From contig JAPETS010000036.1 in the NCBI GenBank assembly GCA_026023565.1, positions 248,001 to 312,000 of the forward strand: DNA of 64,000 nucleotides, read 5' to 3'. The stretch is from Cirrosporium novae-zelandiae (Eukaryota). Shown in pieces: positions 1 through 24,772 of the stretch; the stretch's first letter is position 1; each line of letters begins with the position of its first letter. Under the pieces are notes generated by a model. That model was not told where the DNA came from. It did not search any database and saw nothing but the letters and a program-made list of their open reading frames with translations. The position numbers and the translations under genes are program-made.

Positions 1-1945
1 GTCTCATCTAAGGTTTTTGGCAGTGATTTGAGAGTTTTGCTGAGGTCAGCCTTGGAGGCGCATTTTTTGATCTCGTCCATCTGGCATACAACCCAGCGGA
101 ACCTGGTAATGCATGAATCAGTCTGTGAACAACAAAAAACCTCAGAATGGCCCTATCTTAGGATCCTCCAGAAACATAGTCAATTGATAAGCATTCCAAC
201 CAAACTACAAAACGACCCATTCTTCCTTCTGTAAAGGAAAAAGGCTTCGAGGGGACAAAATCATACATTCCTTGTGCACCACTCGTCAGAGCATCTTCAA
301 TCTCCACTTACGTGCTGCGGGACCACCTTTTCAATTTGCCATCGCATAAAATATTTTCATGGACGAAATATCGGATATCGCTATCAACAACAGCCTCTTC
401 AAGGCATACTATACTCATAGTAATATGGTCTAGACTCTCTTCGATATCGGTTTCTCTCCTGCTTGTTGCTAATATATGAAGACTTTCAATATTTTTTTCT
501 CTTATATCAGCAATAATTTTCAGCATTTTTTCTCTTTCTCCACACTCATCAAGAGAGTCAATGACTACGTAGGTGCATCTTAAAAGGGAGGCGATATTTA
601 AGAGCTCTGCGGTAAGATCGCTATTTGACGGTTTCATAGTCCCCGAGTTGCATTGTGAATATAGGCGAGTGAGAGAATCCGGAACGTCTCCATATTTATA
701 ACAGAGTTGTTGGACTAGCGACCGTAGCATCCCTTCACATGTTTTTTTTGCCTACGACTGGAAGTCAAAGTAAAAGTACACGACTGCTTTTCCGACTGTC
801 TGGTCATAATTGTCATGGAGATTCTGTATGATTGTTGAGCTAGAATTGGTCAGTAATTGCCTAAGGTATTTGATAGAGGATGAGAACGAGAAAGATATTC
901 TGGTCGTGAATTAAAGAATGAAGTGGATGTTTCTGTTGCGTATGATCTCACTGACCTTAATATTGTCTTTCCGGCGCCAGCTGTGGCTCGTAAGTAGTCA
1001 ATCTCTATAATAGACGCATAGCTTTACCTTTCCCGTTCAGCCACAAGAATGAACAAGGATCACGTTGCCATTCTCTATATGTTTCCCCAACAAGAAACCA
1101 ATCTCCTGTTTTGTCCTGATGGCGGTCACAAGCAGCATTGAAGTTCGTCGAAGGATCAAGTTCTTGAGGAGCTAGCCAGGCTAGCACTGCTCGTTTGTGG
1201 TTATCTTCAATCTTCTATCAGCACATCACATTCACATTTGAGAACATGAATACTAAATTTGAACGGCTTCATATTTTCTTGCGCAGTTGATATGAAACAG
1301 AATAATGGTCCTTGAAGCCCGAAATACCGAGAGACAGGCCTTCGGAAAATCGCATATTCAATATGGAACCCTCCAACTCTTCATGAATAAACATTAAATA
1401 AAGACAATAGGATTATTTGCAGTGCAACAAATTCTGATAATTGAAGAGAATGGGTGTACTATACCTATCTTCATAGACTTCAGGTCATCCTGAATATCTA
1501 ATGCCACCGATGCGATGTCTGTTTCAATGGCCACTGCCATGATTCTATATCTTCCAATGTTTTCGACGTATTGCTCAACATCATCTTTCTTAAGCGGCCA
1601 TTTTAATGAATGTTTCACAACTTTCCATCGTCGTAAAGGCTTTGGATAACCCTTCCAACGAAGCCTCTCCCCTAGTGCTTGGACTTCGGCTTCGCAATCT
1701 CCAAGGGTTCCACCAGGTGAGGTAAATTTTTGCAAAGTTGGTAGGCGAGAGTTCTTCTTGTCCTTTTCTGCTTTTAAAGCTAGTTCCTTAATATTCCCTA
1801 GAACAACATTTAGTTCTTCAAGTGCTTTGATAGTCCTATTGATATCCTCAATAGCATGATGAGCATCCTTCGCGTATTGTCGGCACGTGGTTATCACCGA
1901 GGTGGTGATTTGAACGATTGCAATTACACTTGCCGCAACCTCCAT
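1..1945 (-). pseudogene. Fungal NLR/STAND gene (HeLo-like N-terminal domain + NACHT) with two in-frame stops; runs off the left edge
   Basis: N-terminus MEVAASVIAIVQIT...SLKWPLKKDDV is typical of fungal STAND N-terminal domains. Spliced NACHT motifs: LWLNGK/AGAGKTIL (Walker A), YFYFDF, YVVIDSLDEC (Walker B), ILATSR, AQGM/FRWVVCQ...LPKTLDET. In-frame TAG at 752-754 and TAA at 308-310, with the homologous frame continuing on both sides. Confidence 0.85.
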
Positions 1946-2463
1946 AATCCAAGATTGGATCAGGCTGAGATGGAGAGTCTCGGTTTAGGAATAATTCTGT
2001 TGAAGCTGAGTCAACGGTTTGTAATGGATTAACACCGCTGAAGCAAAAGATTAGGAGGAGATAGGATATAAATAAATAAAACGAAGAAAAGGACTGGTGA
2101 GGATAACAGAGAGAAGAGGAGAGTAAAAAGTAAATGTTGAGAGAAGGACTCATATGAGGGAAGAGGCTGAGGGGTTGAGAGATAGATAAGGCGCCAGTGA
2201 AAGCCAGCTTTATGTACAGTACCTAGGTACCTAGGTAGTTAGATAATTCTGGTGGTATATTTCCAATGAGAAGTGAGATTGAAAATTACCAATTACAATA
2301 TACCCTTACTAGTGTGGACCATTGGGGGCTAATTAGTGTAAGGGATTGTGTTCATAGAAATCACGTGCGTGCAAGGGTATAAACGTTGAAGTAGATCACT
2401 TAGATACCTAGGTATCTAGCATTACACCTAACCTACCCTCAAGTTAGAATACAACTTCTAACT

Positions 2464-3653
2464 ATGCGCCCGAGAAAGTCACACACCAAGTCTCGGAGAG
2501 GATGTCTCGAGTGTAAGAGAAGACATATTAAAGTCAGCACCCTGTTTTCTTACTATCTCTGCCTTTCTAACTATATGGATAGTGCGATGAAAAGCGTCCG
2601 CAATGTTCCAATTGCAAGCGACTGGCTATGAAATGCATGTGGTCATCATTACCAGCTAGACCTAATATCTCCTCAAAACCTCTAGCTGCGAAGACACTAG
2701 GCATCGTCCACAGTTTCAATAGCATTTCTACGAGCCTCAAAGACGATAGCACTGTATTAGGCCAGCTTGCAATCAGGGACCTAAAGCTCTTGCATCACTT
2801 TTCTATAGCTACGTACGCCACATTGGATACTGTAGTGGCTCAGCAGCGAATATGGCAAGAAGATGTTATTCAAATGGGTTTCCAGTATCCCTTCGTCCTC
2901 CGTGGAATCTTAGCCATTTCCGCCTTACACCTTGCAACTCTCAGCTCCACCCTCAGCACCGACCTCCTCATCCAGGCCTCCACTCAGCACAATCGCGCCC
3001 TAGGCGATTTCCGCACTACTCTAATTAACATCAATGAGAGTAACTGTACTCCCCTATTTGCCATCTCATGCCTAACCGTCGTACATGCTTTTGCTGTAGC
3101 GCAGATACAAACCACTCAAGATCCCGTGGCGGATATTTTAAATTGCCTCCACCTAATCCGAGGGGTGAATTCCGTGTTGCAGCCGTATTGGCCCAAGCTG
3201 ATGGCTTCTGAATTATCCCCTCGGTTAGATAACGGCTGGAGACGGGGAGTGGCGGGTGAGGTGCCGGAAATCTTACGGCTCAAGGTCCTCGTCAATTCTT
3301 TACCGAACCTGGATAATGGCATAACAAACACCGCATATATGCAAGCAATCGAACAACTACATGTAGTATTTCTTGAAGTCATGACCAGTGACGAGAATCG
3401 GTCGGACTTAGCGCTTCTGTTCACCTGGCCGATCACCTTGTCGGAAAAATTCCTGACATTATTGTCGTCCAGGCAGCCAGTTGCAATGATCATTTTGGCG
3501 CATTTTGTAGCGTTTCTCCACTACAAGAAAAGCTACTGCTGGTGGCTTTCGCAGTCGAATAAACACATCATCAATGCTATTAATGTTTCCCTTGGTTTCA
3601 ATTATAGGGAGTGGCTTTCGTGGCCGAAGCAAATATGCAAGATTGTGATGTAG
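2464..3653 (+). CDS. Zn(II)2Cys6 transcription factor, Upc2/Ecm22-like
   Basis: ATG 2464, intron 2533-2582. Spliced cluster RKSHTKSRRGCLECKRRHIK/CDEKRPQCSNCKRLAMKC, then DLKLLHHF...ILAISALHLA...WP...PVAMIILAHF...WLSWP typical of Upc2-like C-termini. Confidence 0.9.
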
Positions 3654-4674
3654 AATTGATGTCCAACTGAGGGTTAGACCTCCAGCCCCAATCCATGCAT
3701 AGCATTTAAATTTGCCTCGCATCGACTCCTAGCGAGATTCCCGCGTATGGATCAATCTGATCGAGAGGATTTGAAGTTATTACCCACAAAATCTACATCT
3801 TCCTAAGATAAGCCACCTGTTCGTGAATTCCATTTTCTTTCTATATTTGTATTAGTCTTGATGTCTATAGAAGTTACCCTCAGTGATAACATCGATGACT
3901 CCTTGTGCAACGCCGTTTACGACAAGACCGAACAAGACTTGCTTTTCTTAATTTATCTAAAGCCAAACCATTGAAGCTGGCCCCAGTCCCCTTCTATTCC
4001 ATGGTCAAAACCATACCGGATTATAAGGCCTCTTGGCCTGTCAGCTTGGACCTTCTTTGTAGCATAAGTTATGTGCTTGTCTACCTTTGGCAAAGCCCTT
4101 TGCAAAAGCCATTACCTTACCCCGCCTACATGATGTATCACTACCAAGCCATGCTTAAAGAGTCATTCTGAACTGAAATTAGCATGGTGACAGATACAGG
4201 CGTGAAGGGCCTTGGAAAATGTACATTTTTTTCTCGCTAATACCTCCAGTCATGGCTGAACCTCTTTGCTGACTTCGAAGGCGAAGAATGGAAACCATAT
4301 AGGGGATTTGGCATGTACTACAATGAACGATGCTAATGCCGTCATTACTAAATCTGAAAAGGTTAGGAAAAGTGACAAATTGTCAAAGCCTGCTTCTTTG
4401 TGAGTACGATTGATGATGTCAGGTTAGGGAAGCTTACGCTCGATTTATTCATGATATTATTGGTCTTAAAAACCCCTTTTGAAGCAGAGTTTTTCCCTTA
4501 TACACGTAAATAGTGTTATCATCGTGATATACAATATCCTATGCCTATCATCTACCGTTACCTTGATGTTTGATTGTTCGTCATTGCAGTAGTTCATATG
4601 GCAAGGCAATGTGCATTTAAACTTTTGCGGACCGTCCTCGCTTACTGGGGGGACCTTTGATTGCCTGGCTACGC

Positions 4675-4728
4675 GAATACGCTCAATACGTTGAATACGC
4701 TCGATACGTTGAATACGTTGAATACGTT
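4675..4728. repeat. 9-bp tandem repeat x6 (consensus GAATACGTT) upstream of the RTA1-like gene
   Basis: Units gaatacgct, caatacgtt, gaatacgct, cgatacgtt, gaatacgtt, gaatacgtt read directly. Confidence 0.9.
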
Positions 4729-5275
4729 CGCACCGTTAGGTCCTCTAGCATGCTTGATGTACAATCATATGCTCTGAAATGGAATCCTTCTAGAGAGGGC
4801 CACGCTCCAAGTCTCGATCATGTTCCTTTTAATGCGACGACGGATACAATTGATACGGTGAAGCTATCCAAATACTTTAAATGTCTGCAACTTGGCCGAA
4901 TAGACCAAGTTTACTAGGTCTGTCCTGCTCGATGGCTGTATCAATCTCAAATCCCACCAGAAAGTTAGAGGATCCGGCAGAATTGGGGGCACGACAGATC
5001 TCACCAGCTACCGTCGATTTGCGAAGTGCAAGTTGTATACTTCCAATGCCCCTTTCGCCAAGTGCTCCTTTATAAGACTTGGGCCATCGCCCTCGTCCAC
5101 AGAGATTATTAACAGCGCGGTTTATAAACTACTTGAGTCTTCGTTCACTTGATTCGCTTCATATTACGAGTGTCCTATCGTTATAAATCCATCTTTTCAA
5201 CGCCCACAACGATAAAAATTGCAAACAATTCATACCCATACTTAAGAAATCGTGATCAAGAGTACCATATCAACC

Positions 5276-6930: not shown

Positions 6931-9900
6931 ATGCTCAATTCCGTACTCGTTTTGCTTTTGTCTCTGGCGATATGTCAAACTGCCTGGTCATGGAAATTCC
7001 TCCCAGGTTTTAGTTCTCCACTCACAGAATATCGACCAAAGTTTCGTTATTGGTAATGCCATCTCTTTGATCCCTGACTGCTATCGCTAAAGACTTTCGG
7101 GGACTGACTTTTTCGAAGGCTCCCTGACGCTAGCGCCTCTGCAGATGTTGTCCGCCAGGACATTTCTAGCCTCGCTGACGTAGGTGCTGGAGGGTTGGAG
7201 TTCTTACCATTCTATCTTTACGGACTACCTACCTCAGGAGCGGTACCACCAACAGACTGGAACAAATATGGGTTTGGTACACAGGCGTTCAGAGATATTT
7301 TTAAAGTCGCATTGACCGAAACCAAAACCAAAAGTCTCGTTATGGACTTCGCAATCGGCGCAAATCAAGGGCAAGGTGTTCCATCCATCTGGGAACGCCA
7401 GGTCTAGCAGTCGAGCTCGTCTTTGGCAATGCCTCTGTAGCCGCTGGCCAAACATTTAATGGCCCGCCTCCGACACCAAACATCAATTTCTGGGTCGACG
7501 AGGGCTTCATGGCTGATCCAGAGAAGTTTGGCCCAAATATCTTGAAAGCCGTCATCGCTGGTCGCGTTGTTTCAAGTACGTTGGGAAATATTGGTCCATT
7601 GATGTTATTTACATTGATATATTATATATAGGTAACGGTGGTCTAGATTCAAACCATCCGGTTCAACAAACAGTTTTGGGCGAATCATCAATAGTGGATC
7701 TTACATCCCTTTCCGAAAATTGGACTTTGAATTGGACTGCACCCACTAGCAATGGCACTCACAGGGTCATCGCGTTCTATGAAAAGTATACTAATCAAAG
7801 AGCTTGCAAAGGAGGAGTAAATGCCACGAATTATATTGGCAATGGCTCCTGGATAGTTGATCATTTCAGTGCGGATGGAGCTGCTAGAACAACGGATTTC
7901 CTCGACCAACACCTTATTAATGGGGATGTAAAAAAGCTAGTGTCGCAGGTTGGAAATTACTGTGCGTATATTCTGTCAAAATGTGTTCTGGTACTCATTA
8001 TGTTGAATCGAATATTCGTCAGCTTGGGAGGATAGCATGGAACAGCAGGCCTCGCTCTTCTGGACGCCAGATTTTCTCGATAACTTTGCCGCAAGGCGAG
8101 GCTACAGCGCGATCAAATATCTACCTCTATTTTTCAGCACCAAAAATCAATGGGGTCAAGTTTATCCTCCTTACAACGAAACCTTCATATACGGCCAGTA
8201 TGACTCCAATGGAGAGAGCGTCCACATAACAGATTACCGGTTGACATTGAATGAGGGGTATCAAGACTATATCAATCATCTCAACCTATGGAGCCGATCT
8301 ATCGGCATAAACTACTCTTGTCAACCTGCGTATAACTTACCCTTGGAAATGGTATGTAATGCTTTCTAATTACAGCCCTGATGTTTCTTCTAGCTTCACC
8401 AACAACTCTAACGATGTTGATAATTAGCTTGCCGACACTCCTACTGTTGCTGTTCCAGAGCTTGAATCCTTGGGTCTCAAAAATATCGCGAGATATCGAC
8501 AATTTAACGGTCCGGCTCATCTGAACCAAATGAAAATTATTTCCACTGAAGTGGGAGGCGAAAGCACAGGAGCATATGAGCAGACAGTACCCCAGCTTCT
8601 GGCACTATTTAGGAATTCCTTTGCTGCTGGTGTGAATATGATGGTTGTTCATGGTTCTCCGTATTCTGGCGACTACGCTGAAACAACCTGGCCCGGGTAC
8701 ACTCCGTTCTATTACACAACTACAGATATGTGGAATAGGAAACAGCCTGCTTGGAAGCATTTCAAGGATATCATGGACTTCACAGCACGGAACCAGCTGG
8801 TGCTGCAAACTGGCACTGCACGGACAGATTTGGCGTTTTATCTATACGAAGCCCCATGGACGGGAACTAACTCGTACCAACCAGACAACCTTCGCGCTCA
8901 AGGTAGGAGTCATAATCTAGTCTCCATGTGTTACTAAGAAGGACTTTAGGTTACACATATGAATATCTTGGGCCAGAGAACCTACTTTCCGCTCACGCGG
9001 TTGTCAACTCATCTATCTTGGCCCCTGACGGACCAGCATACAAAGCGCTGATTTTCTCCAATGCAACTCAAATATCCTTTTCTGTAATAGACCGCATCAA
9101 CCACTTTGCCGCTTTCAATCTTCCGGTTATCTTTATCGGCAGACTTCCAACGGATTCCATCGGTTACACCGCAAATGGCGGGCTAGCTGTGTCGCAATTG
9201 CTAAATACCACCCTCTCACAGCACAAGTCCGTACGCCAGATTTCAGATAGCAGCGAGTTATCCGCGGCCCTTGAAGCAGCTGGAATATCGCCCAGGGCGT
9301 CATTCACCTCCCCGTCGAGCTCATGGTATTCATTTTGGCGCTCAGATACAAAGAACAAACAAAAGCTAGTGTATCTTTTTAATGGCGGGGACGCAAAAAC
9401 CGTAGACATCAACTTCACGGTTGCAAGCAACGCCGTCCCATTCATACTAGACACGTGGACTGGTGACCAATTACCCCTTCTACAATATAATCGAACCAAG
9501 TCCGGTATCTCAGCTCCAATCCACCTTCGCACAAATCAAAGCTTTGTTATTGCTTTTACACAAAACCTCGAAGCCGCCGCACCTTCAGTCCACGTGGAGT
9601 CGACGTCCGGTGGTGTCGTAGACTTGCTGTACTCTCAGGAAGCTGGGATTGAAGTCCGCACAACAAGCCTTGCTACCGTCACTCTTCAAGACGGGAAGTC
9701 GTTCAATCTGAATGGCCAAGCTCCTGCACCACTCAACCTAACCCGCTGAGATCTCACCGTCGAGGATCGGCACGGACCCGCCGATAACAACAGCAGCAGC
9801 ACCACGACAGTAATCACGCAGCGTCACGTCGGCATCGTATTGCTACAACCATGGACCCAGATTCCCGGCCTAGAAGACGTAAGCGGAATCGGCTCCTACC

Positions 9901-11799: not shown

Positions 11800-12445
11800 T
11801 TATTTCGGAGTCTCAGTTTCCCTCAACTCCTTCATCCCCTTGAACACCGAATCAAAGTCATATTCATTCCAGTTCACTCTGGGCTTCAACCCGGCAAACT
11901 TCCAGACACCATCGATCTTGCGGTAGTAGAGCTCGTTTGTGGCGTGGCCATGGCCCTTTACCCGGATTTTGGTCATGGAGGAGTCTTCATAGACCTGGTG
12001 GGCTGCGCGGAGTTGATGGTGTCCGATGACTTCGGTGTCGGAGAGCTTTTCCCACCATGTTCCTCCTATTAAGTGTTGGGTTTTGACTAGAGGGTCGCCA
12101 AGGAAACCTTCGTGGGAGACCATAGCCATGAATTCGTCCGCGCTCATGGAATCCCACTTTCGCATGCCAATCTGGGTATAATCAACGAGCATGGTGGGGG
12201 CGATGATCCCTCTGAGTCTTTTCCAGTCCTTTATTTCGCTATTAGCAATTGAGGGTTGGAAGAAGAACTTGCTGCTTTCCTTACCTTGGTGTCAAAGCTA
12301 TCGCCCCAGTCAAAGACGACCTTGTTGAGCTCAAGATAGTCTATAACTTGATCAGTATCAACTTGGTCGCACAAGCCAAGATCCTCTGCGTACCTTTGAA
12401 GCTGATGTCCAAGTTGGGGTTTTCGGCGTTGGTGATGAAAGCCAT
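11800..12445 (-). CDS. SCD1: Scytalone dehydratase (DHN-melanin pathway)
   Basis: Three exons: MAFITNAENPNLDISFK/DYLELNKVVFDWGDSFDTK/DWKRLRGIIAPTMLVDY...FLGDPLVKTQHLIG...HQLRAAHQVY...KGHGHA...WKFAGLKP. Confidence 0.95.
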
Positions 12446-14074
12446 GATTACTAGATGATGATTGCTGATATTAGGCAGTAAGTGGATTGGAGTAGAGAAG
12501 AGGCGATGAGATTAGATGCTTGTTGCTGGAGAAGGTTGACGGTTGATACCGCTGTTCAACATGGCTGGAAGGGCTTTCCTTTAAGAGGTTCGACATTGCT
12601 CGTAAAGCTTAAGGTGTGACGTATAAGCTGGGCGAAGTGTAACAGTTTGTCGGGGATAGGAATCTAGAAAAATATATCCGTAGAGCATAGGATTCAGATG
12701 TAAGTGATTATCATTGGTGATGACGGGCAATGCTGGTGGCTGATGGATTGGGTTATCGCCGATAGGGAACCCTTGTACCTGGCTAGAAGCCACTACTTGA
12801 AACTAAATGCCACCACTGCATGTTTAGTTGAAAATCTTGGAGGTCGTTGGCACTATTTCGGACACCGAGGGGCATGGAGAGGATGATGAAGCTTTGGTTC
12901 CGACAGAAGTCAAAAATAATTCTCAGAAACATCTTTTTGCTATTTATTCTTAGTATTTTCGTTCCATGAGATTCTTTGAATCCTTTTATTATTCCAAGGT
13001 CTAATTCTGGTTCCTGACAGCCCCAGACTATTAAGTCAGCACATAGTTAGGAAATAATTGCGGAAAGTATGGAAAAGGGAAGGATGTGAGAATCTTCCGA
13101 ATCATAATTAGCTGACTTAGCTGATGAAGGTTTGGATGGAATCTTACTCAAGGTTTCAGGTACTCATTCATGCTCGTACATATATAATAATATGCTTCAT
13201 GTTGTGTCACGAAGAAACTGTTCTGCATAACCATCAGACGTCAATATCAACTCCATTTCTTTTTTGATTCAATTATATGTTAGACAGAATGAAGAATGAT
13301 GGAACCGAAAAAGGAATTATTGAAGCTCAAGTTAAGATTTCTTAGTCATCGAGTCACATGTACGCTGGATGGTGGACGCTAAAACCCCACATCAAATGGG
13401 AGACTTTATTGAGTAGAAGCTGCGCCCATTAATGCACGCATCTGTCTTTACATAGCACAAGTAGTCTATTCATTACTGTGCATGGTTTCGGACTCTCGCT
13501 GTTATTCCAACTCTAAATGTTTATTTTCATTTTCAATCCATTTTCAATCCATTTCAGTCCTATCTCGGCGACCGAGACCGGCCTAGTAGCCTATCAGCCT
13601 ATCAACCTATCAACCTCCCAGCGCCTCAAACCTCCCCCCCCCCCATCTACACTTTCTAATTCTATTCAAAATGGATTCTCATCATTGGGGCAACGCTTTC
13701 AATCATTCCTTTAGCTGGCCCACTACCACAGCCCTCCCTAGTCAGCTCATCAGACTTGCCGTCCTTTTGGTACTCAACAACTCCGTTGCGGGCAGGCTGG
13801 GTCGTATCCCCTGTAGCAATTCATGACGCCATATAGGTTTAAGATAAACCTACGCCGTATCTCTCGGATGGAGTCGATGACCGAATCATCCCCTTGGCGA
13901 AGTCAAGCCCCCCCTAGTCCAAGACAACACTATCAGCTTGAGCCAGCCCAATCTTATCTAGATCCATTGGGGTGAATATAAAGAGGAGCTCATATGTCTA
14001 TATCTAACTCCATTCTCCAAAGCTTTGCATCCTTCCGACTTCGAATCATCCGCATATTACGAGCATTCTTCAAA

Positions 14075-15073
14075 ATGGGTAGTAGCTATAACCACGAGTA
14101 TAAGCCTCTCAAAGGCAAGGTTGCCTTGATCACTGGATCTGCCCGAGGCATTGGAAAAGGTATTGCGACCGAGCTTGCCAAGCAGGGTGCAGACATCGTC
14201 ATCAACTACGCAAACAGCTCATCTGCTGCGGAGAAGACAGTTGCAGAACTTAAGGAATTCGGTGTTGATGCCATCGCTATTAAGGCCAATGTTACAAAGT
14301 TAGCCGAAGTTAAGCAGTTGTTCGAGGATGCCGTAAAGCACTACGGCAAGTTGGATGTTGTGAGTTCTCCCAGGAGACCCGGTTGAAAGGATCATTAAAG
14401 CAAAGTTCTAACAAAGTTGTCTTTGATAGGTCTGCTCGAACAGCGGTACCGAATTATTCAAGCCAGAAGAAGAGGTGACAGAAGAGGACTTTGACAGAGT
14501 CTTCGGCCTCAACACCAAAGCCCAATTTTTCGTTGGTCAACAAGCCTATAAGCACCTTCCCAAGAATGTACGCATCACACCATTACCACCACTCAATTGC
14601 AAACATCTAATCATTCACAGGGTGGCGGCCGCCTTGTCCTAACCTCCTCCATCGCCGCCAGTGCAACTGGAATCCCGAACCACGCTCTCTACGCCGGTAG
14701 CAAAGCCGCAATTGGCGGATTCGTTCGTAGCTTCGCCAAGGATTTTGGACACCATGGCATTACCTGCAACGCCATCGCCCCCGGTGGTGTAAAGACTGAC
14801 ATGTTTGCGGCGAACGCTTGGCACTATGCCCCAGGCGGCTACAAGGATATGCCACTTGAGAATATTGAGAAGGGCATTGTGAGTATCACTGCTTTTTTTT
14901 ATATAGTTATATGAGCTTTTGCTGACGATATCGTTTCTCTACAGGCTAGCGCTTGCCCACTCGGCCGGTGCGCGGTACCACAAGATATTGCGAGAGTGGT
15001 CGCTTTCTTGGCTGGACCAGACAGCGAATGGATTAACGCTCAAGTCATCCCCGTTGACGGTGGTGGTGTCTAA
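14075..15073 (+). CDS. Hydroxynaphthalene reductase (SDR), most similar to 1,3,6,8-tetrahydroxynaphthalene reductase
   Basis: Four exons. TGSARGIG cofactor motif, VCSNSG, NTKAQFFV, LTSSIAA, NHALYAGSKAA (YxxxK), NAIAPGGVKTDMF, WHYAPGG; stop TAA 15071-15073. Divergent from SCD1. Confidence 0.93.
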
Positions 15074-15397
15074 GAACGTTGAGACGAAATACATGATAAT
15101 ATTATAGATCGTGTCCCATAATTGTGTGTTTGGAAACCTTGAGCGCGAATGGCTGATGATGATTACACGTTGTGGGGATGTAGGGTAGCATATTTCCCTG
15201 GCGTTACTTTAAAGTTCCAATGAGCGATAAAAAATGGAAGTTGAATCTAAAGATAGTTAGCTAATAAACTAATATCTGGAAACGAAACATGAAAATATTG
15301 AAGAGGATATTAATTCTAAGAATCTTTTTATCGATGGAATGGAATTTCAATTATTTTTGATTTCTTGAACCATGGACCCAATCTCACAACTTGTTAA

Positions 15398-16448
15398 TCA
15401 GGCAGCTACCGTCACGCCCGACCCGTCAACCTTCCGGTAGCATTGGCGAAAAACCTTCATCATTCTCTCCATTCTCTCAACGAAATTCCCCGCCATGCCC
15501 ATCCCCGCAGCCCCAATGCCCACTCCGGCTCCAGCAGCCCCCACCCCAGCAATTGTACTCGCAACAGCCCCTCCCATTGCGGCACTCTGACAAACAGCAA
15601 AGAGGCTTCCTGCCGAGACCGCCCCAATGGACGACTGCCAACCTGCTGCTACGCTGCCCGCGACAGGGCCGATGGCACTGAAGCCCACGGCTCCAAGTAT
15701 TGGAAGTGTAATGGCCGCTCCCACGCCGACGAGGAGACCCCCTACCGATAAGGCTGCCTTTAACGGCTCTTGTCGGGCAAAATGCCCCATGGCTGCGAAG
15801 ACGTTTCCGGGCGTGGCTTTCCAACCTATGAGAGAGGAAATTAGTTAGGCTGCCAGGATGGGAACATCAAAGATTAAATTGGGAGAAAGAAGACAAACCA
15901 CAGTTCTTGGGCCACTCGTTCATGAATTCCACACTCCAACCTGAAAGGATGATCGATGCCATTACGAGCCCCTGGTTAGACACATCGTCCGGGAATGTCC
16001 CAGCTCTAAACCGGTGTTGTACTTCCTCGCCGCTCAAGTCTGCAAATGGTTTCCGCCCTGTGGCGATTTCATAGCACAGACTTCCTATCGCGAAATGCTC
16101 CTTCCGTTTCACCTGCTCTTCAGGTGAAAACTCAGAGATGCTGTCGGGAGGGATACGGTAATGTGGTGGATATACATGGTATCCAAGGTCGTTTATTTTG
16201 GGCTCAACCTTTTCGGGGGCTGGAGTTTTAACGATCCCATCTATGCAGAGGATGGAATCGAAAGCTCGGGGCTGGTGATCGCCTGTTGCTTTTGTTGCTG
16301 GAAGATGCTCGAAGAAGATACTGTTGATCCATTTCTGTCGGATGTCCTGTGAAATTCCTGGATAATCATCGAGACTTGTTGAGTCAAGACCATCAGGCGT
16401 TTGAACTCTGACACGGCATGTAAGCTCGTGGCTTTGTTTGATCGTCAT
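15398..16448 (-). CDS. Pseudokinase C-lobe fused to an IFI6/IFI27 (ISG12)-like Gly/Ala-rich membrane domain
   Basis: ATG 16448; phase-1 intron 15826-15898 (GTTTGT...CTAAC...CATAG) joins the two ORFs. Exon 1: EHFAIGSLCYEIATGRKPFADLSGEEVQHRFRAGTFP (kinase subdomains IX-X). Exon 2: LGAVGFSAIGPVAGSVAAGWQSSIGAVSAGSLFAVCQSAAMGG (Ifi-6-16 signature). Confidence 0.75.
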
Positions 16449-17110
16449 GTTTGGAAAGCTATTGATGAGGTGTGTGAGGAATAGTGGGATAGGTGAGAGA
16501 GGAAGTAAGATGAGAAGAGCCAGGAGAGTGTTAAATACCCTGCGTTGACTATCGATACTGTGCCGTAAGTGATTTGCCGCTTTGTCTAAATAGAGTGTCC
16601 AATCGTAGAGCATACACTCTGCAGACAGCCTAGCCTTTCTAACACATTAATACATATCAATCCAGAGCTTTGATCTATCATTCCGCCCAGTTGAGCATTT
16701 GAGATGGCTAGAAATCACCATGGTGTTTTAACGTAAGTCCTGGCTCAAAATAACATTCTTAATACTTGCGAAGATAGACGTTCAGATGGGCCAAACCAGC
16801 AATCGACGTCAGCAAGCATGAAGTGTCCGACGTCCCGGCCGGGATCCTAATAAGAGCTAGGCTGCCTGCTCAAAGACCACCATTTAACTAATCAAGCAAA
16901 GATAGACTTATCCATAGCTGGAGAATAATCTATCATCGATAAAATAAATGGGCGAACCTTCTTAAAAGGAGGTCTTAGAACCGAATTACAGTATTCATAA
17001 TCGACTTGTTAATGCTGCCGAGCCAGTGATAGCCCGGGGGCTTCATAGGCTTCGCTATCTGAGTATCCATACCATTAGAGATCTAGATAGAGAACAACCA
17101 CTCCAGGCCT

Positions 17111-17903
17111 TTAGGAACTAGTTCCAATTGTTTGATTTCCCGAAGCAAACACATCTCTAACCCACTTCACCTTATCCATCGCAAGTCCTAGACTGGTTGT
17201 GCTAATTCCAAATATCCCTCCCGCCGCCTCAATTCCTGAAATCGCCCTCTCAGCAGGGCTTCCCATGCTGGTGCTCTGAAGGAATGAAAACAAGGAGCTC
17301 GTGACGGACCCTCCCATAGAAGCTTGCCAAGTTGCCACTAGGGTGCCGGCAACTGGTCCGATGGAACTGAGCCCAAAAGCACCTAGGAGAGGACCAACGA
17401 GGCCTGAACTCAAACCTAGGAAAACCCCACTTCCTCCAATCGCAGCGAGGATGGGGTGGGCGTCCTTGTATTTATCTAGAGCCGTGATGGCGGTAGACAA
17501 GGTTTGGTTGATATTTGAACTACTATCGGACCCTTTCTTGTTGTTAGACGATATGCCATGCGCTGCGGGGCATTGAAGATGAACATTAGGTGTACCTTTC
17601 AATTTCTGCAACTCTGTCATTGCTTTGTTAAGATTTTTGCTGGCAAATCCGCCGGCATCTTGGAAAAACCCACGAAGGTTTGAAGTGGGCTGTGACTCTA
17701 TTATGGGGGTCAGACGCTTCTGTGCAAAGGTAGGGAAGCGTAGGTGCAATACTTTGTATCTTTTGCATGCTGTCTTTGAGCCCATCCATGAATTCCAAGG
17801 GGTTTGGATCATGTGGTGCGGACTGGAGGTTTTGGAGGATCTGATTGGTCCAGGCATTTTTCAGAGTAGTGGGAATATCTCCCTTTGATTCTGGAGACGT
17901 CAT
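17111..17903 (-). CDS. Second IFI27/ISG12-like protein with an unrelated helical N-terminus
   Basis: ATG 17903; 55-nt phase-1 intron 17698-17752 (GTATTG...CTGAC...AATAG) joins two ORFs. C-terminal LGAFGLSSIGPVAGTLVATWQASMGGSVTSSLFSFLQSTSMG. Confidence 0.72.
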
Positions 17904-18894
17904 GATTTTTGTATTGGTTTAAGGATGCATAGAAGACCACAGACGGGCTGAGTTATTATTGGGCTGATGAGAAGAAAATAGTAGAAGCGTTAAGAGTCCT
18001 GCTATGCGTTAAGGCTGCTGGGATGAGTTGACCTTCATGATATTGCAAGTTAAGATAGAAGAATGTAGAAAGATATGAAAGCGAAGGAAACTTGAATGTG
18101 TATGTGCTGCTGCTATATGATTCTATTATCTTTCTAAGGATGCATTATCCAGGGCAGAACAGCTCATCTCAAAGAGGGCTCCAGTATTCTAACACCCAGA
18201 TATGGGAAGAGCAGGTTATGCGGACATAAAACAATGAATTATCATCATCATGGGAAAAGCAGATGTTTGGATCTATCATGGGAATTTTAAGAGTAGTGGG
18301 GGTGATTTAAATATTTTAGTATAATGCTGATTTGATACCCTCTCGGGTCTCCGTACTGTCGACGTACTGTGTTGTGTACTATTGCGGGGATGGTGAGTAC
18401 GTGGTGGGATACTTGAGGGAATGTGGTTTCTAGCACCATGCCAGCGAGGATATGACGACGGTCCGGAATATTCCGAGCCAAGATAAGATAAGAGATGGCA
18501 TATTTTTCATAATCAGATTTAATTCTAGAATGGACTAAGTTAACCTTAATTCAAGATAATTATCCGATATCCATAATTTTATTCCATCCCTGATCTAAAC
18601 CACTCAGGCCCACCCTAACGAATGCCTAAAATCCTTCACATTGAAACCCTTCCATTTTGAACCAACAAATTCTCAGATTCATGCCTAGCACCACAGTAGG
18701 CATTCTGATACAATAATGATACGAGGATGATCCTTCAACATCTTCCCCTGCCGAGACGGCTGCTCGGACTCACCGTTTCAACATTATTTCTTGGCTTTCT
18801 TCTTTGGGATTGACATGTAGTGCTGCCTCCACCTGAGGCTCTTTATTTACTCGTCTTCTGTTCCTTTCTTCCTACATCAATGATCCCCTAAATT

Positions 18895-20934
18895 ATGTTG
18901 GATAACAATCAAATCACCCCCCCTTGGGCTAATGAGGCAGGCACTGTGGAGGAGCAAGGTCTTTTGTTGGAGCCTGATGGGTATGTTTCTGACGATGGAG
19001 CCATACAAATAACCCAACCAAACAACAAGCCATTACCGAAGAGCCCAAAAAGATGGAGGTCCCGCTTGACTTTATGCTTGTGGGCAATTGCCCTCACATC
19101 CATAGTCATCTTCGGGGTTACGTTGGGCGGCCGACGTTCGCATAGGAGGAAGCACTTTGATTTTGAATCGATCCACAATAACGGTCAATCAAGATTGCCT
19201 ACATCTAAAAATTATCGCCTTAACTTTCCTGAACAATATCCTCCTCTGGATCCAAACCACTCAAGTAAGGAGTGTCGGGATGCTTGGGCAACACTCGACT
19301 CGATTACTTGCCACGAACAGATCTGGGCTCGAAACTGGGATAATGGCGGAATTCAATTGCTTGGGCCGAGTCTCTCTAGATTTCTGCCCATGATCTGCAA
19401 ACATTACTGCACGAATGAGCTAAGACAAGCTCAAGAGCTGCTCCATCAGTTTTGTGGCCAGGATGACAAATTCCTCTTGGATAATTACAAGGGGAGATTT
19501 AATACAACAATGCTAGAACCAAATCCAGCTGCAGTTCTGGACACCTTAAACGCTCGTCAAATCCAATCTTGCCGAACTAGTCCGATCGATGACGCTGAAC
19601 GAGGTTACTGCATGACTGATCTTCAAGAGAGATGGTATTTTATTGATGGGTTGGAGACTGACGGGCTTGGTGGGATTGATGATTTCCTCGATCGCTCCAA
19701 TGAACATAAGGTTGAGCCGGCCACGCGCAAATCTGGAGTTGAAGGTGGAAAGGACTGGTCAAATAGATATAATTACTTTCGCGAAGAGCGAAGATTTGGT
19801 CCGGGGAAAGGGGAGACCACATGCAGCTGGTGCACTTTTAACTGGTTAGAACGGAAGCTCAATAGCTGGAAAGTGGACAATACATTAGGCGAGAATGGTG
19901 AACCACTTGAGCTCGCTTCATTTTTGAGTAGGATCCAGAAGGCTGGACAGCGATGCGCTGGAGACAACTTTACGCGGACATGGGAAAAGACAGTTGCCAA
20001 CTACTATGAACAAGGGCTCCTCAATGACGATATAGGCACAAAACTTCCGTCAGGAGATGTGGTGTACCTTATTGGCCATGGTCCTTCTCCCGGGGATTAC
20101 CCCTTGCCCGCGGTTAAAGAATCCATCGATTCCTTGGCTATCCAGAAAACGTCAGAGAACCAAGCTGAAATTGAGAGATATACCAATTGCCTTAATTCTT
20201 TCTACGAAGAAGCTCAACCCCTGACCTGTTATCCCTTCCTGACTTTCTCCGATATTACACGCGATATTCTTATCGACCAGGCACGCACAAAGACCTTCTG
20301 TTCCTCTCATTGCAGCAGCTCAATCAACGATATGCGGCGCAGCATGATCACCGCTGGATGTAACACCAATATGAATTGGGAATCCATGAGTAAGATGCCC
20401 GAAAAGTACAACCTTCCCTTTAACCTCGATACCGTGTTTTCCGAATTAGGCACCGTCGAAACGCACAGCTTAGTATGCCAAACTGAACGCTCTTCCGGAA
20501 CCGTATGTGCTTATATCTGGAACACACTAGGCCACCCAGAGTGGACTCTACACGAACCCTCTATTAGCCAACTCTTGGATGTCATCGAAGAAGCCCTCGA
20601 CAATCTCCCCCCTATCCCCCAAAATGTTACAGAAGCTATTGGCGTTGAATGGAGACAATTGACCCGGGACCAGCGGCTACTCGTACAAGAATGGGACAAT
20701 CAAATGCGAGCTGGTGTATTCAGTAGCTGCGTGTGGAGGAAATTTGCTAGAGAGCGGACGTTCATGTGGGGTGGTGATGGCGACTTGATTGCGCAAGTGA
20801 AGGGGGTTGAGGACCCCGATGTTCTTGTGAGGTGGATCCAGACGGTGCATCGGTATTGGGATGCCTGCAAGAAACGGGACGTGAAGCACTCCGAGGAGGA
20901 GATGAAGTTGGTAGACAAAGACATTATTTCGTAA
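18895..20934 (+). CDS. Hypothetical type II membrane protein with two Cys-rich extracellular modules
   Basis: Intronless 679-aa ORF; one hydrophobic segment LTLCLWAIALTSIVIFGVTLG after a basic patch; two similarly spaced Cys arrays; several NxS/T sequons. Confidence 0.8.
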   Translation: MLDNNQITPPWANEAGTVEEQGLLLEPDGYVSDDGAIQITQPNNKPLPKSPKRWRSRLTLCLWAIALTSIVIFGVTLGGRRSHRRKHFDFESIHNNGQSRLPTSKNYRLNFPEQYPPLDPNHSSKECRDAWATLDSITCHEQIWARNWDNGGIQLLGPSLSRFLPMICKHYCTNELRQAQELLHQFCGQDDKFLLDNYKGRFNTTMLEPNPAAVLDTLNARQIQSCRTSPIDDAERGYCMTDLQERWYFIDGLETDGLGGIDDFLDRSNEHKVEPATRKSGVEGGKDWSNRYNYFREERRFGPGKGETTCSWCTFNWLERKLNSWKVDNTLGENGEPLELASFLSRIQKAGQRCAGDNFTRTWEKTVANYYEQGLLNDDIGTKLPSGDVVYLIGHGPSPGDYPLPAVKESIDSLAIQKTSENQAEIERYTNCLNSFYEEAQPLTCYPFLTFSDITRDILIDQARTKTFCSSHCSSSINDMRRSMITAGCNTNMNWESMSKMPEKYNLPFNLDTVFSELGTVETHSLVCQTERSSGTVCAYIWNTLGHPEWTLHEPSISQLLDVIEEALDNLPPIPQNVTEAIGVEWRQLTRDQRLLVQEWDNQMRAGVFSSCVWRKFARERTFMWGGDGDLIAQVKGVEDPDVLVRWIQTVHRYWDACKKRDVKHSEEEMKLVDKDIIS

Positions 20935-21514: not shown

Positions 21515-22932
21515 CTACTTCTCGAATTTCAATCCTTGTTTGAGGATCGGACTTTCCATGAAAGTTTCCCAATTGTGGACCATGACTGTGTTCTGATGGC
21601 AGAGCCGGACCTCCTCTCCACCTCTATCGATCATCTCCCTTTCATATTCCGCGATGGCTACTTTTCTAGCCTCAAGACCGTTGTTGAAAAAACGAACGAC
21701 TGCTTTGGTTAAATTGGCTGCATCTGCGATAGAATGATTAAGGCCTTGCCCTCGCTCTATGTCAAAGTTAGCATGGCTCTCCGATAAAAGATGAGAGTCT
21801 AACGATATGTCATAGGATGTGCTGAGTCTCCCGCGAGGGTAATCCTGCCGCCGTGGTTATCCCATTGATGGTCAGATGCAGTAGGGTCCCATTGGGTCAT
21901 CCCATGGTACCAGATTAGCTGATTATTAGGTATCCATTCATATCCGCTTTTCCATGGATCACAGAAGTCCTTTGCTAGGCCCTTCAGCTGCTTCAATCTC
22001 ATTTCGTTCGTCCAATCCTTGGTGTTTTCTTGTTCCTCGATGCTGTATGGGAACGAGATATAGGTATAGAAAACCCAATTCTCTGGGTCCTCTTGGTTGG
22101 GGATATCATGAACACCCCACCAAGAGACAAGGCCCTTAGGGTGCACGGCAGCTATGTGTAGTGGATGCCATTGACGTAGGAAAAGAGCACGTTCTGGTGA
22201 ATAGGTTGACTGAACAAAGGCAGCCCCGAATGGAAGCCGAGCCAAGGCAGCCTTTTCGAAACCAAGGAGCAATTGACGAGTTTCTGATCGGGAGCCATCA
22301 GCACCGGCCAGAAAGATACCCTTCGTCTCTGTGCCATCAGCGAAATGTGCCGTTACAATCTTCCCGTCTTCTGAATATGTGACATTCTCAAGCTTCTTTC
22401 CATAGCGCACATCAATGCCCTGACGTAACAGCGATTGCAATTTACTTCGCTTCAGTCGATACCATTTACCAACGTCGACGTGTGTGATTTTTACTCCGGA
22501 TTCTCCATTATAAAAGTCCAAAACTGCATCCTCGGGCAGTGGTAGGCTCGAATCAACTTGACAGTCGCGTAGCTGAGCAAAGAGTTCAGGCGGCAGTAAG
22601 GTCTGAAGGATAGGGACAGACCAATGGATTCCAAAATTCCAGTCCCTTCCTTGGAATCTATCAGTCTTTCCTCCGAAGGCTTCGGCGTTTTGTTCGAAGA
22701 CGACACATGGTATGCTAGCCTGGATGGGGTGTCAGTGTATATATCTTTATTGGGTGAAGAGATAGGGTAAGCACTTTCTTGAGACCGTTTGCTAAACAAA
22801 GTCCGGTACATCCTAGATAATTGAGCAAGTAATCGACGGGGTTACTAGAGAGCAAAAAATACCAGCGCCAATGATAAGCACCAAGTTGGAAGCAGGTGCT
22901 TCATTGCTATAAGATTTGAAGTTATCAGACAT
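21515..22932 (-). CDS. FAD-dependent monooxygenase (aromatic hydroxylase type)
   Basis: Four exons: VLIIGAG/CTGLCLANGLKK/...GADGSRSETR...ITLAGDSAHPMTY/QRGQGLNHSIADA; stop TAG 21515-21517. Confidence 0.9.
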
Positions 22933-23487: not shown

Positions 23488-24772
23488 ATGCCTACAGGTA
23501 CAGAAGCACCCACATCGCCCACTGCGCCCACTGCGCCCACTGCGCCTGCTGCATCCGCTCGTCCAATTGCGCCAGCTGCTGGAGATATTAGTGACAATGA
23601 TTCCTCCTACAGCAGCGAAAATTCCTTACTCGATGAAGATACTGTTTCTCTGACCTCGAGTATCTACAAGTATCGGTTTGAGAACGGACGACGTTATCAC
23701 GCCTATCATGATGGCGCCTACTACGCTCCCAATGATGAGAAACAGAACGATCAATTAGACCTGACACATCATCTCTGGTCTCTAACGCTGGATAATAAAC
23801 TTCTTTTGGCTCCCATCAAAAATCCTCAAGTAAAACATGCTGTCGGAAGAGGGATTAATGATCCACTTTACTGACGCTCGAGATAGAAAATCCTAGATGT
23901 TGGGACAGGAACCGGAATTTGGGCCATGTAAATCTTCCTCGATCTCTTGTGAATAAACTCCCCTCATGACACTAAAGGACTAACATTAACTAGTGATGTA
24001 GCTGATCAATTCCCGAGCGCCCAGGTCATTGGAACCGATTTATCACCAATCCAACCTCAGTGGATCCCGCCCAATTGTTCGTTCGAAATAGACGATTGCA
24101 ACGAAGACTGGACATACCAAGAAGACTCGTTCGATTTTATACATGTGCGGGACATGATGGGAACTGTCCCGGACTGGGACGAATTTTTCCGTAAGGCATA
24201 CTTTCACACAAAGCCGGGTGGCTACATCGAGTGCTTGGAGCATTCGGTAAAGGGGGTTTCTGATGAGAAGCCTTTGGGTAAAGATCATACCATATCAAAA
24301 TGGGGAGACATTGCGCTTGATATGGGAGAGAAGATGGGCAAAAGTTTCGCCATCCACTCTAAGCTGAAAGAGATGATATCAAAGGCTGGATTCACCGACG
24401 TCGTAGAGGTAAAAAAGAAATGGCCGTTCAATGCATGGCCGGAAGACTCCAAATTGAAAGAAATTGGACGCTGGAATCAACTTCGTATCAGCCAAGGCAT
24501 CGAAGGATACGCGCTCAGAATGCTCACACAGGTTGGAGGTGTAAGTATCTCTCGTATCCTATACAGTATGTCATCTAATACAAAGAAGTGGTCCTACGGC
24601 GAGGTTCAGGCTGTCTTAGGCCAAATGAGAACAGCTACTAGAGACGAGAAGTCCAAAGCATATCTTGATGTGTAAGATCCACTCCTACTACTCGATGTCT
24701 CGTTCATGCTAACCTGGGTACAGAACGATTGTATATGCTCGGAAGCCGGACCCAGAGCCCGCCAATGATTGA
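23488..24772 (+). CDS. SAM-dependent methyltransferase (LaeA-like/TAM family)
   Basis: SLTSSIYKYRFENGRRYH, YYAPNDE, ILDVGTGTGIWA, VIGTDLSPIQP, FDFIHVR, KPGGYIE, VYARKP; multiple introns; stop TGA 24770-24772. Confidence 0.92.

Follow-up and report, generated by a model that had tools for sequence, protein, structure and literature searches.

A kinase C-lobe-like domain joined to an Ifi-6-16 membrane domain in a conserved family of fungal proteins

Proteins of the IFI6, IFI27 and IFI27L1 type (PF06140, the 'ISG12 gene family') are stand-alone membrane proteins of animals, ~100–130 residues in length and induced by interferon, and the mechanism by which their Ifi-6-16 domain acts is still debated. 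To our knowledge, fungi possess no interferon system. MLKL, which combines a membrane-acting part with a kinase-derived one, carries a killer domain in the form of a four-helix bundle at the N terminus, together with brace helices and, at the C terminus, a pseudokinase that has both lobes and binds nucleotides. KIND is described as a non-catalytic kinase C-lobe used as a protein-binding module (PMC11231147, PMC2064798, PMC5928657); the concept is set out for SPIRE-type proteins in Holozoa and Amoebozoa, and SPIRE was not found in fungi (PMC11231147). Here we describe a gene from the fungus Cirrosporium novae-zelandiae, an ascomycete of the class Xylobotryomycetes (taxonomy lookup), which lies on the minus strand at positions 15,398–16,448 of a 64,000-nucleotide stretch of DNA (the window; GenBank assembly GCA_026023565.1, contig JAPETS010000036.1, positions 248,001–312,000 of the forward strand) and encodes a predicted protein, P0004, in which an N-terminal domain resembling the C-lobe of a protein kinase (hereafter the N-domain) is followed by an Ifi-6-16 domain.

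P0004 is like animal IFI6, IFI27 and IFI27L1 in having a small, Gly/Ala-rich and hydrophobic domain that passes the Pfam cut-off, and differs from IFI6 and IFI27 in that this domain forms the C-terminal half of a 325-residue protein, comes after a large N-domain predicted to be cytosolic and is followed by an extra, conserved C-terminal helix. With KIND it shares the use of a kinase C-lobe, as predicted here, that lacks both N-lobe and catalysis and stands N-terminally in its host protein, whereas KIND is partnered with WH2/FYVE, FERM/PDZ or RasGEF domains and the N-domain of the fungal family with Ifi-6-16. Relative to MLKL, the order of the parts is reversed, the pseudokinase is represented by the C-lobe only and the membrane part is a predicted integral Ifi-6-16 domain; the four-helix bundle and brace have no counterpart, as the kinase-like domain of the fungal protein starts at about residue 8–12 with nothing before it.

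The Cirrosporium gene and its two domains

The gene is divided into exon 1 (15,899–16,448; 550 nt), which begins with the start codon at 16,448–16,446 and encodes residues 1–183 and the first base of codon 184, an intron of 73 nt (15,826–15,898; GTTTGT...CTAAC...TAG) that sits between the two domains, and exon 2 (15,398–15,825; 428 nt with the TAA stop, 15,400–15,398, counted in), which encodes a linker, the Ifi-6-16 domain and the C-terminal helix. The CTAAC element is found at intron position 51, 18 nt short of the 3′ end; the guanine and cytosine fraction is 0.40 in the intron versus 0.49 and 0.61 in the exons. Read directly from the DNA, the two halves occupy different frames: a stop-to-stop open reading frame (ORF) at 15,867–16,646 on the minus strand has a Met at 16,448, with the N-domain in this frame ending in SGWSVEFMNEWPKNC, and an ORF at 15,398–15,844 on the same strand encodes the Gly/Ala-rich hydrophobic sequence. 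Without splicing, the reading frame of exon 1 terminates at codon 194. Joined by script, the exons give a coding sequence of 978 nt and a product of 325 amino acids with one terminal stop, letter-identical to the NCBI model 'MAG: hypothetical protein M1834_005932 [Cirrosporium novae-zelandiae]', which is presumably computational because its source is a metagenome-assembled genome. A preliminary description of the locus had proposed that excision of 15,826–15,898 yields one protein, and the joined translation agrees with P0004 exactly; every motif that it quoted is present, namely SLDDY (residues 25–29), IRQKWINSI (36–44), EHFAIGSLCYEIATGRKPF (117–135), GFSAIGPVAGSVAAGWQS (231–248) and GSLFAVCQS (256–264). 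The start site also agrees with the N termini of related proteins (alignment A1).

The N-domain (15,900–16,427, minus strand; residues ~8–183) was examined by AlphaFold2, Foldseek and the ESM Atlas as well as by sequence searches. A single-sequence AlphaFold2 prediction of P0004 was unusable (mean predicted local distance difference test score (pLDDT) of 39). Supplied with a 69-sequence alignment (A2), the prediction reached a mean pLDDT of 75, and successive blocks of ten residues across positions 1–180 scored 71–98, most of them at least 88. Among the matches listed when this model was compared with the PDB by Foldseek, all are protein kinases (best E = 2.3 × 10−3), aligned, for example, over residues 279–454 (6vbz_A) and 279–455 (4btf_A) of MLKL, 481–658 of BTK, 99–286 of PknB and 83–288 of CDK3; judged by kinase-domain boundaries, we take the aligned range in all of them to correspond to the C-lobe. 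Of the structural matches listed, the first is the MLKL pseudokinase, with WNK3, CSK, BTK, BRAF and others within 1 Z unit of it. In the ESM Atlas, the segment adjoins clusters of fungal kinases (0.90 by features; TM-score of 0.55–0.66 with its own model).

Sequence searches gave a weak signal that is consistent with this fold. A phmmer search of PDB sequences returned Aurora kinases in all of the best 60 of 85 matches (E ≤ 10; best E = 0.009), in alignments spanning strand 8, the activation segment and helices F and G, and sub-threshold matches to Pkinase (PF00069) cover the same part of the profile in 27 of 69 relatives (best E = 5.8 × 10−4). An exhaustive search of 1.84 billion representative sequences with the N-domain as query identified 211 proteins at E ≤ 10−3, 103 of them at E ≤ 10−10, and the domain is therefore not a chance sequence; a word-index homology search had returned only P0004, and both exhaustive and profile searches were needed to recover the relatives. 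Supported by three partly independent routes, including the ESM Atlas features and their own model, the assignment stands at the level of the predicted fold: the N-terminal ~180 residues appear to fold like a kinase C-lobe alone, roughly from helix E to helix I. The preliminary description had named a kinase C-lobe here, which holds for the fold as judged by AlphaFold2 with Foldseek and by the ESM Atlas and fails at the Pfam cut-off.

Little remains in this domain of the catalytic apparatus of kinases. As only ~11 residues of P0004 precede the kinase-aligned region, the N-lobe is absent, and a regular-expression search of residues 1–185 found no GxGxxG, VAIK or HRD motif. The DLG at residues 87–89, which phmmer pairs with the DFG of Aurora A, falls where the sequences of relatives vary and are interrupted by gaps, and is thus not counted as a retained DFG. 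Among the 207 proteins with an N-domain, HRD occurs in one, HxDxxxxN in two, DFG in one and an upstream GxGxxG in none; at least 80 residues lie upstream of the domain in only ten, and of the long-headed members P0006, P0025 and P0035 contain no Pfam family, and P0107 and P0133 contain only Ifi-6-16. In place of HRD, the family has the consensus I-R-P-W-D, directly followed by the next strand, such that the loop is shortened and lacks both the catalytic Asp and the Asn. With the N-lobe absent and the catalytic loop degenerate, the domain should be incapable of the ATP binding and phosphorylation that kinases perform. The earlier claim that the glycine loop, VAIK, HRD and DFG are missing is thus upheld with a single amendment, the DLG at 87–89, which relatives do not conserve.

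Conservation in the N-domain is concentrated elsewhere. The conserved positions are Y93, P94 and P100, which fall in a YPxxYRIPP motif, R115, E117, F119, A120, G122 and Y126, which fall in helix F, and P153, W171 and F175, and conservation is strong at all of these apart from E117, G122 and F175; the residues that are invariant across relatives are all intact in P0004. From the secondary structure of the model, we infer that YPxxYRIPP corresponds to the activation-segment, P+1 and APE region of kinases.

In the C-terminal half, residues 215–287 (15,515–15,733, minus strand) match the Ifi-6-16 family (PF06140) with E = 1.5 × 10−9 and 38.1 bits, against a curated cut-off of 29.1, and the exon 2 translation by itself scores 40.3 bits. 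The earlier identification of this domain is thereby confirmed, and the per-domain fold and profile comparison that the preliminary description had proposed returned kinases from Foldseek for the one half and PF06140 from Pfam for the other. The surrounding region (residues 206–298) contains 25% Ala and 24% Gly, the membrane part is rich in small-xxx-small repeats, and 19-residue Kyte–Doolittle windows of at least 1.2 are centred on residues 212–237 (maximum of 2.16), with weaker hydrophobicity at 258–287. The best PDB match of the fungal family profile is the solved IFI27L1 chain 2loq_A, which is weak (E = 0.011, 18 bits, ~80 residues) and includes a common GF..G..A.S.AA and AGS...QS pattern. 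Beyond the domain lies a predicted amphipathic helix (15,440–15,511, minus strand; residues ~289–312) with AlphaFold2 block pLDDT values of 73, 95 and 74, against values below 50 for the membrane helices, and a consensus pattern that is kept in alignment A1. A complex prediction that combined the N-domain (residues 1–185) with the C-terminal 40 residues, run without alignments, scored 0.00 and is uninformative either way on docking between the two.

A fungal family with both domains

The half-kinase/Ifi-6-16 fusion is conserved over long evolutionary times and is a family trait rather than a singleton. Two hidden Markov models (HMMs), one for the N-domain and one for the Ifi domain, were built from alignment A1 and used to scan 263 collected proteins. 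Both domains were found in 90 of these, with the N-domain first in every case, and so the survey of fungi that the preliminary description had suggested returned 90 collinear fusions. A further 117 proteins contain the N-domain alone; 88 of them end no more than 30 residues past it, as is expected where gene calling that ignores introns comes to a halt in the junction intron. The Ifi domain alone was detected in 54 proteins, with hosts including Aspergillus, Lactarius, Blastomyces and others, together with an insect IFI6-like protein (P0261); they carry the same membrane domain without the N-domain. Several of these Ifi-only proteins are nearly identical to fused members in a tree of the Ifi domain, and some of the 54 are probably exon-2-only calls of fused genes, so the true number of stand-alone genes is lower. 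The remaining two, P0084 and P0099, are repeat proteins and were rejected as false positives. Pfam itself detects Ifi-6-16 in 26 of the 62 relatives scanned, at or above the cut-off in 22.

The named hosts of two-domain members comprise 17 Ascomycota and one basidiomycete, Piloderma croceum. By taxonomy lookup, fusions occur in Xylobotryomycetes, Dothideomycetes (Cenococcum), Eurotiomycetes (Endocarpon), Orbiliomycetes (Arthrobotrys and Dactylella) and Agaricomycetes. They are also found in Botrytis (two species), Sclerotinia, Monilinia (two species) and Cudoniella, which we take to be Leotiomycetes, and in the lichen-forming Peltula, Fulgogasparrea, Bacidia, Pseudocyphellaria, Pleopsidium and Cladonia. 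Lecanoromycetes, too, are among the host classes. Three members bear the UniRef title 'Protein kinase domain-containing protein'; the others are 'hypothetical' or 'uncharacterized'. Two longer proteins that might have been taken for new architectures, P0165 from Bacidia gigantensis (620 amino acids; MFS plus the family) and P0203 from Cudoniella acicularis (632 amino acids; bHLH plus the family), are probably merged gene models and were set aside.

Metagenome contigs provide a view of the gene at the level of DNA, with both parts present, in order, in 12 of 34 loci. One uninterrupted fusion ORF was found in each of three contigs of 1.1–1.5 kb (L001, 317 amino acids; L002, 329; L004, 297), which are either intronless genes or assembled transcripts. 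These three form a subfamily of Piloderma croceum-like proteins with an extra N-terminal DPFD..L..LGLYQ extension. Elsewhere, the junction is broken by in-frame stops (L003 and L005) or by a frame change across 47–67 nt (L006–L011 and L022); because these breaks fall at the same junction, the intron site is shared among related loci. L007–L009 are near-copies of each other, as are L010 and L011, and do not count as independent. L003 was considered as an intronless copy and rejected, as its single tblastn high-scoring segment pair holds two in-frame stops and therefore contains an in-frame intron.

The tree of the Ifi domain (140 rows and 99 columns, built by a quick method) leaves 69 of 137 forks open. 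On it, the fused label needs 15 changes, of which the starred branches force only one, and no conclusion on a single origin is drawn.

Candidate roles of the protein

We lean, with some reserve, towards a reading in which the gene is an intact two-exon member of a conserved fungal family and its product is a membrane-anchored docking module based on a non-catalytic kinase C-lobe, KIND-like in concept. The Ifi-6-16 helices would anchor the protein in an internal membrane, the endoplasmic reticulum (ER) or mitochondria by analogy with the animal proteins. A short linker would hold the dead C-lobe on the cytosolic face, where it may act as a docking or pseudosubstrate module whose partner, for instance a kinase or a client of one, would be bound through the YPxxYRIPP stretch (activation segment/P+1) and the region of helices F and G. 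The best-kept surface of the lobe would then be the one that kinases use to hold substrates and partners, and the C-terminal helix would come back to the same side of the membrane.

Several observations count against this proposal. No Pfam kinase model matches the N-terminal half at its cut-off, the best being PK_Tyr_Ser-Thr (PF07714) with E = 0.29 and 10.8 bits against the 23.1 required; the Foldseek E-values are modest, none reaching 10−3 among the matches listed; and the membrane half of the AlphaFold2 model is of low confidence (pLDDT of 39–53). At the degenerate catalytic loop, P0004 reads P-R-A-F-D versus the consensus I-R-P-W-D. The Pfam KIND model matches none of 69 members at E ≤ 0.5, nor P0001 at E ≤ 1, which is why we call the N-domain KIND-like in principle but do not count it as a member of KIND; solved KIND structures are likewise absent from the best 50 matches in either fold-search list, and shared ancestry with KIND is no more probable than a separate truncation of a kinase. 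A look-up of sequencing runs that contain 15,300–16,600 listed no RNA run and a single DNA run, which may be the source itself; the case for splicing in Cirrosporium comes from comparison with relatives. Membrane insertion, localisation, topology and the binding of a partner are predictions.

The preliminary description had favoured a regulated membrane effector with a pseudokinase sensor or decoy, and had pointed to MLKL. As an executioner after the manner of MLKL, the Ifi-6-16 helices would oligomerise as glycine zippers and permeabilise the membrane; the dead lobe would restrain them until they were freed by a signal, such as phosphorylation of the retained activation segment or binding at that segment, with cell death or defence as the outcome. 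The many small-xxx-small repeats of the membrane part fit this idea, as does the report that animal IFI27 promotes mitochondrial apoptosis, and of five related loci one (L003) has an NLR-like gene beside the family member. The structural match to MLKL that might recommend it does not, however, stand apart from those to WNK3, CSK, BTK, BRAF and others, all of them within 1 Z unit, and the protein has its domains in the reverse order, half a pseudokinase and neither four-helix bundle nor brace; the four other related loci and the window share no conserved neighbour, and the broad conservation, among the few loci seen, looks more like that of a housekeeping or stress protein than that of a fast-evolving immune effector. 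We consider an MLKL-style executioner unlikely. A broader version, a widespread fungal executor of death or defence that follows the logic of MLKL with other parts (a half-pseudokinase as sensor or latch and an IFI27-type glycine-zipper end that attacks membranes), seems to us quite doubtful. The opposite, protective role is also unlikely, in our estimate: here the Ifi-6-16 domain would lend stability or shape to the membranes of the ER or mitochondria when the cell is stressed or infected by a virus, with the C-lobe merely recruiting or regulating it; animal IFI6 has a role in the ER against flaviviruses. Membership of Ifi-6-16 at the Pfam cut-off and wide conservation across fungal classes speak for protection, as does a study in which the action of IFI6 is described as anti-apoptotic and mitochondria-dependent (PMC4526556). 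The analogy nevertheless has to span a very large evolutionary distance on a low-complexity domain of ~80 residues, for which the match to IFI27L1 reaches only E = 0.011.

Two further explanations strike us as very improbable. The C-lobe could pair with the N-lobe of another protein to give an active, membrane-bound split kinase, for which the well-conserved substrate-binding elements (the P+1 stretch and helices F and G) are suggestive; yet the catalytic-loop Asp and Asn and the Asp of DFG are missing across the family (one HRD, two HxDxxxxN and one DFG in 207), and no member contains an N-lobe, with an upstream GxGxxG in 0 of 207. Alternatively, an ab initio model might have joined unrelated ORFs, or a truncated kinase pseudogene might be decaying beside an Ifi-6-16 gene. 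That splicing at this locus is known by comparison only, that the NCBI model derives from a metagenome-assembled genome and that another Ifi-6-16-like gene, which lacks a kinase part, is located 1.3 kb away lend this idea some colour. An artefact or relic is difficult to reconcile with an exact spliced frame bounded by canonical fungal intron signals, with 90 collinear fusions elsewhere, three of them uninterrupted ORFs, with an intron site common to related genomic loci and with family-invariant residues that are all intact in P0004; on these sequence comparisons, it is already contradicted.

With the predicted C-lobe of this family, the concept of a C-lobe-only kinase module reaches into fungi, beyond Holozoa and Amoebozoa. 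Should the executor reading prove true, the ISG12-family membrane module would be an ancient opisthokont immune effector older than interferon, and fungi would, separately from animal KIND, have co-opted a kinase C-lobe as a switch without catalytic activity. The family offers genetically tractable hosts and a built-in candidate regulator for the Ifi-6-16 domain, and is a concrete candidate for studies of membrane or organelle stress and of immunity in fungi; we regard its interest as moderate, and as greater should the membrane domain turn out to act as an effector. In the full-text literature searched for Ifi-6-16 or PF06140 in fungi, the sole results were a survey of the Thielaviopsis punctulata secretome and virology reviews on other subjects; a search with the locus tags of family members yielded no paper, and none describing the half-kinase/Ifi-6-16 architecture was found in the literature searched, although literature beyond it is not excluded. 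This accords with the earlier statement that no characterised fungal example is known. The family sequences are already public as hypothetical proteins, and the novelty thus lies in recognising and interpreting the architecture and not in new sequence: both modules are of known kinds, and their combination is a conserved, apparently undescribed fungal architecture.

Surroundings of the locus

The fused gene has a tandem neighbour at a distance of 1.3 kb, a diverged Ifi-6-16-like gene that shares its strand and has no kinase-like part (P0003; ORF at 17,111–17,860, with the domain at 17,159–17,452). It was detected with the exon 2 protein P0002 as tblastn query against the window (17,485–17,147; E = 9.5 × 10−19, 35% identity) and with the family Ifi HMM, which matches residues 137–234 of P0003 (E = 1.1 × 10−14); Pfam sees an Ifi domain there only at E = 0.11. 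The first ~130 residues of P0003 do not resemble a kinase and are matched by no Pfam family. In the Ifi tree, P0003 stands beside P0004 on a branch of 3.48 with a support of 83, from which no conclusion on tandem duplication is drawn. No flank of the related loci contains a tandem Ifi paralogue, and no second kinase-like copy lies within the 64-kb window.

Comparison of five related loci (L003, L006, L007, L010 and L022) revealed no conserved neighbours; as the neighbours differ among them, no conserved context points to a function. In L003, an NLR-like gene (1–3366, minus strand; DUF7708, NPHP3_N/NACHT and TPR) is divergent from, and ~0.5 kb away from, the family member (3881–4861, plus strand), an arrangement found in this one of the five loci that may be due to chance.

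In the window, the fused gene directly adjoins a pair formed by a scytalone dehydratase (11,800–12,291, minus strand; PF02982, E = 2 × 10−69) and an intron-split short-chain dehydrogenase/reductase (13,982–15,073, plus strand), which looks like a dihydroxynaphthalene (DHN)-melanin-type pair. An uninterrupted ORF of 680 amino acids (18,892–20,934, plus strand) has no Pfam family at E ≤ 10−4 and is rich in Cys and Trp, with one hydrophobic segment near its N terminus. A monooxygenase-like ORF (21,799–22,731, minus strand; no Pfam match at 10−4, the label coming from reading the sequence), a methyltransferase (23,953–24,675, plus strand; PF13489) and a fragmentary GH106 rhamnosidase-like ORF (8,916–9,749, plus strand) may be part of a secondary-metabolite neighbourhood.

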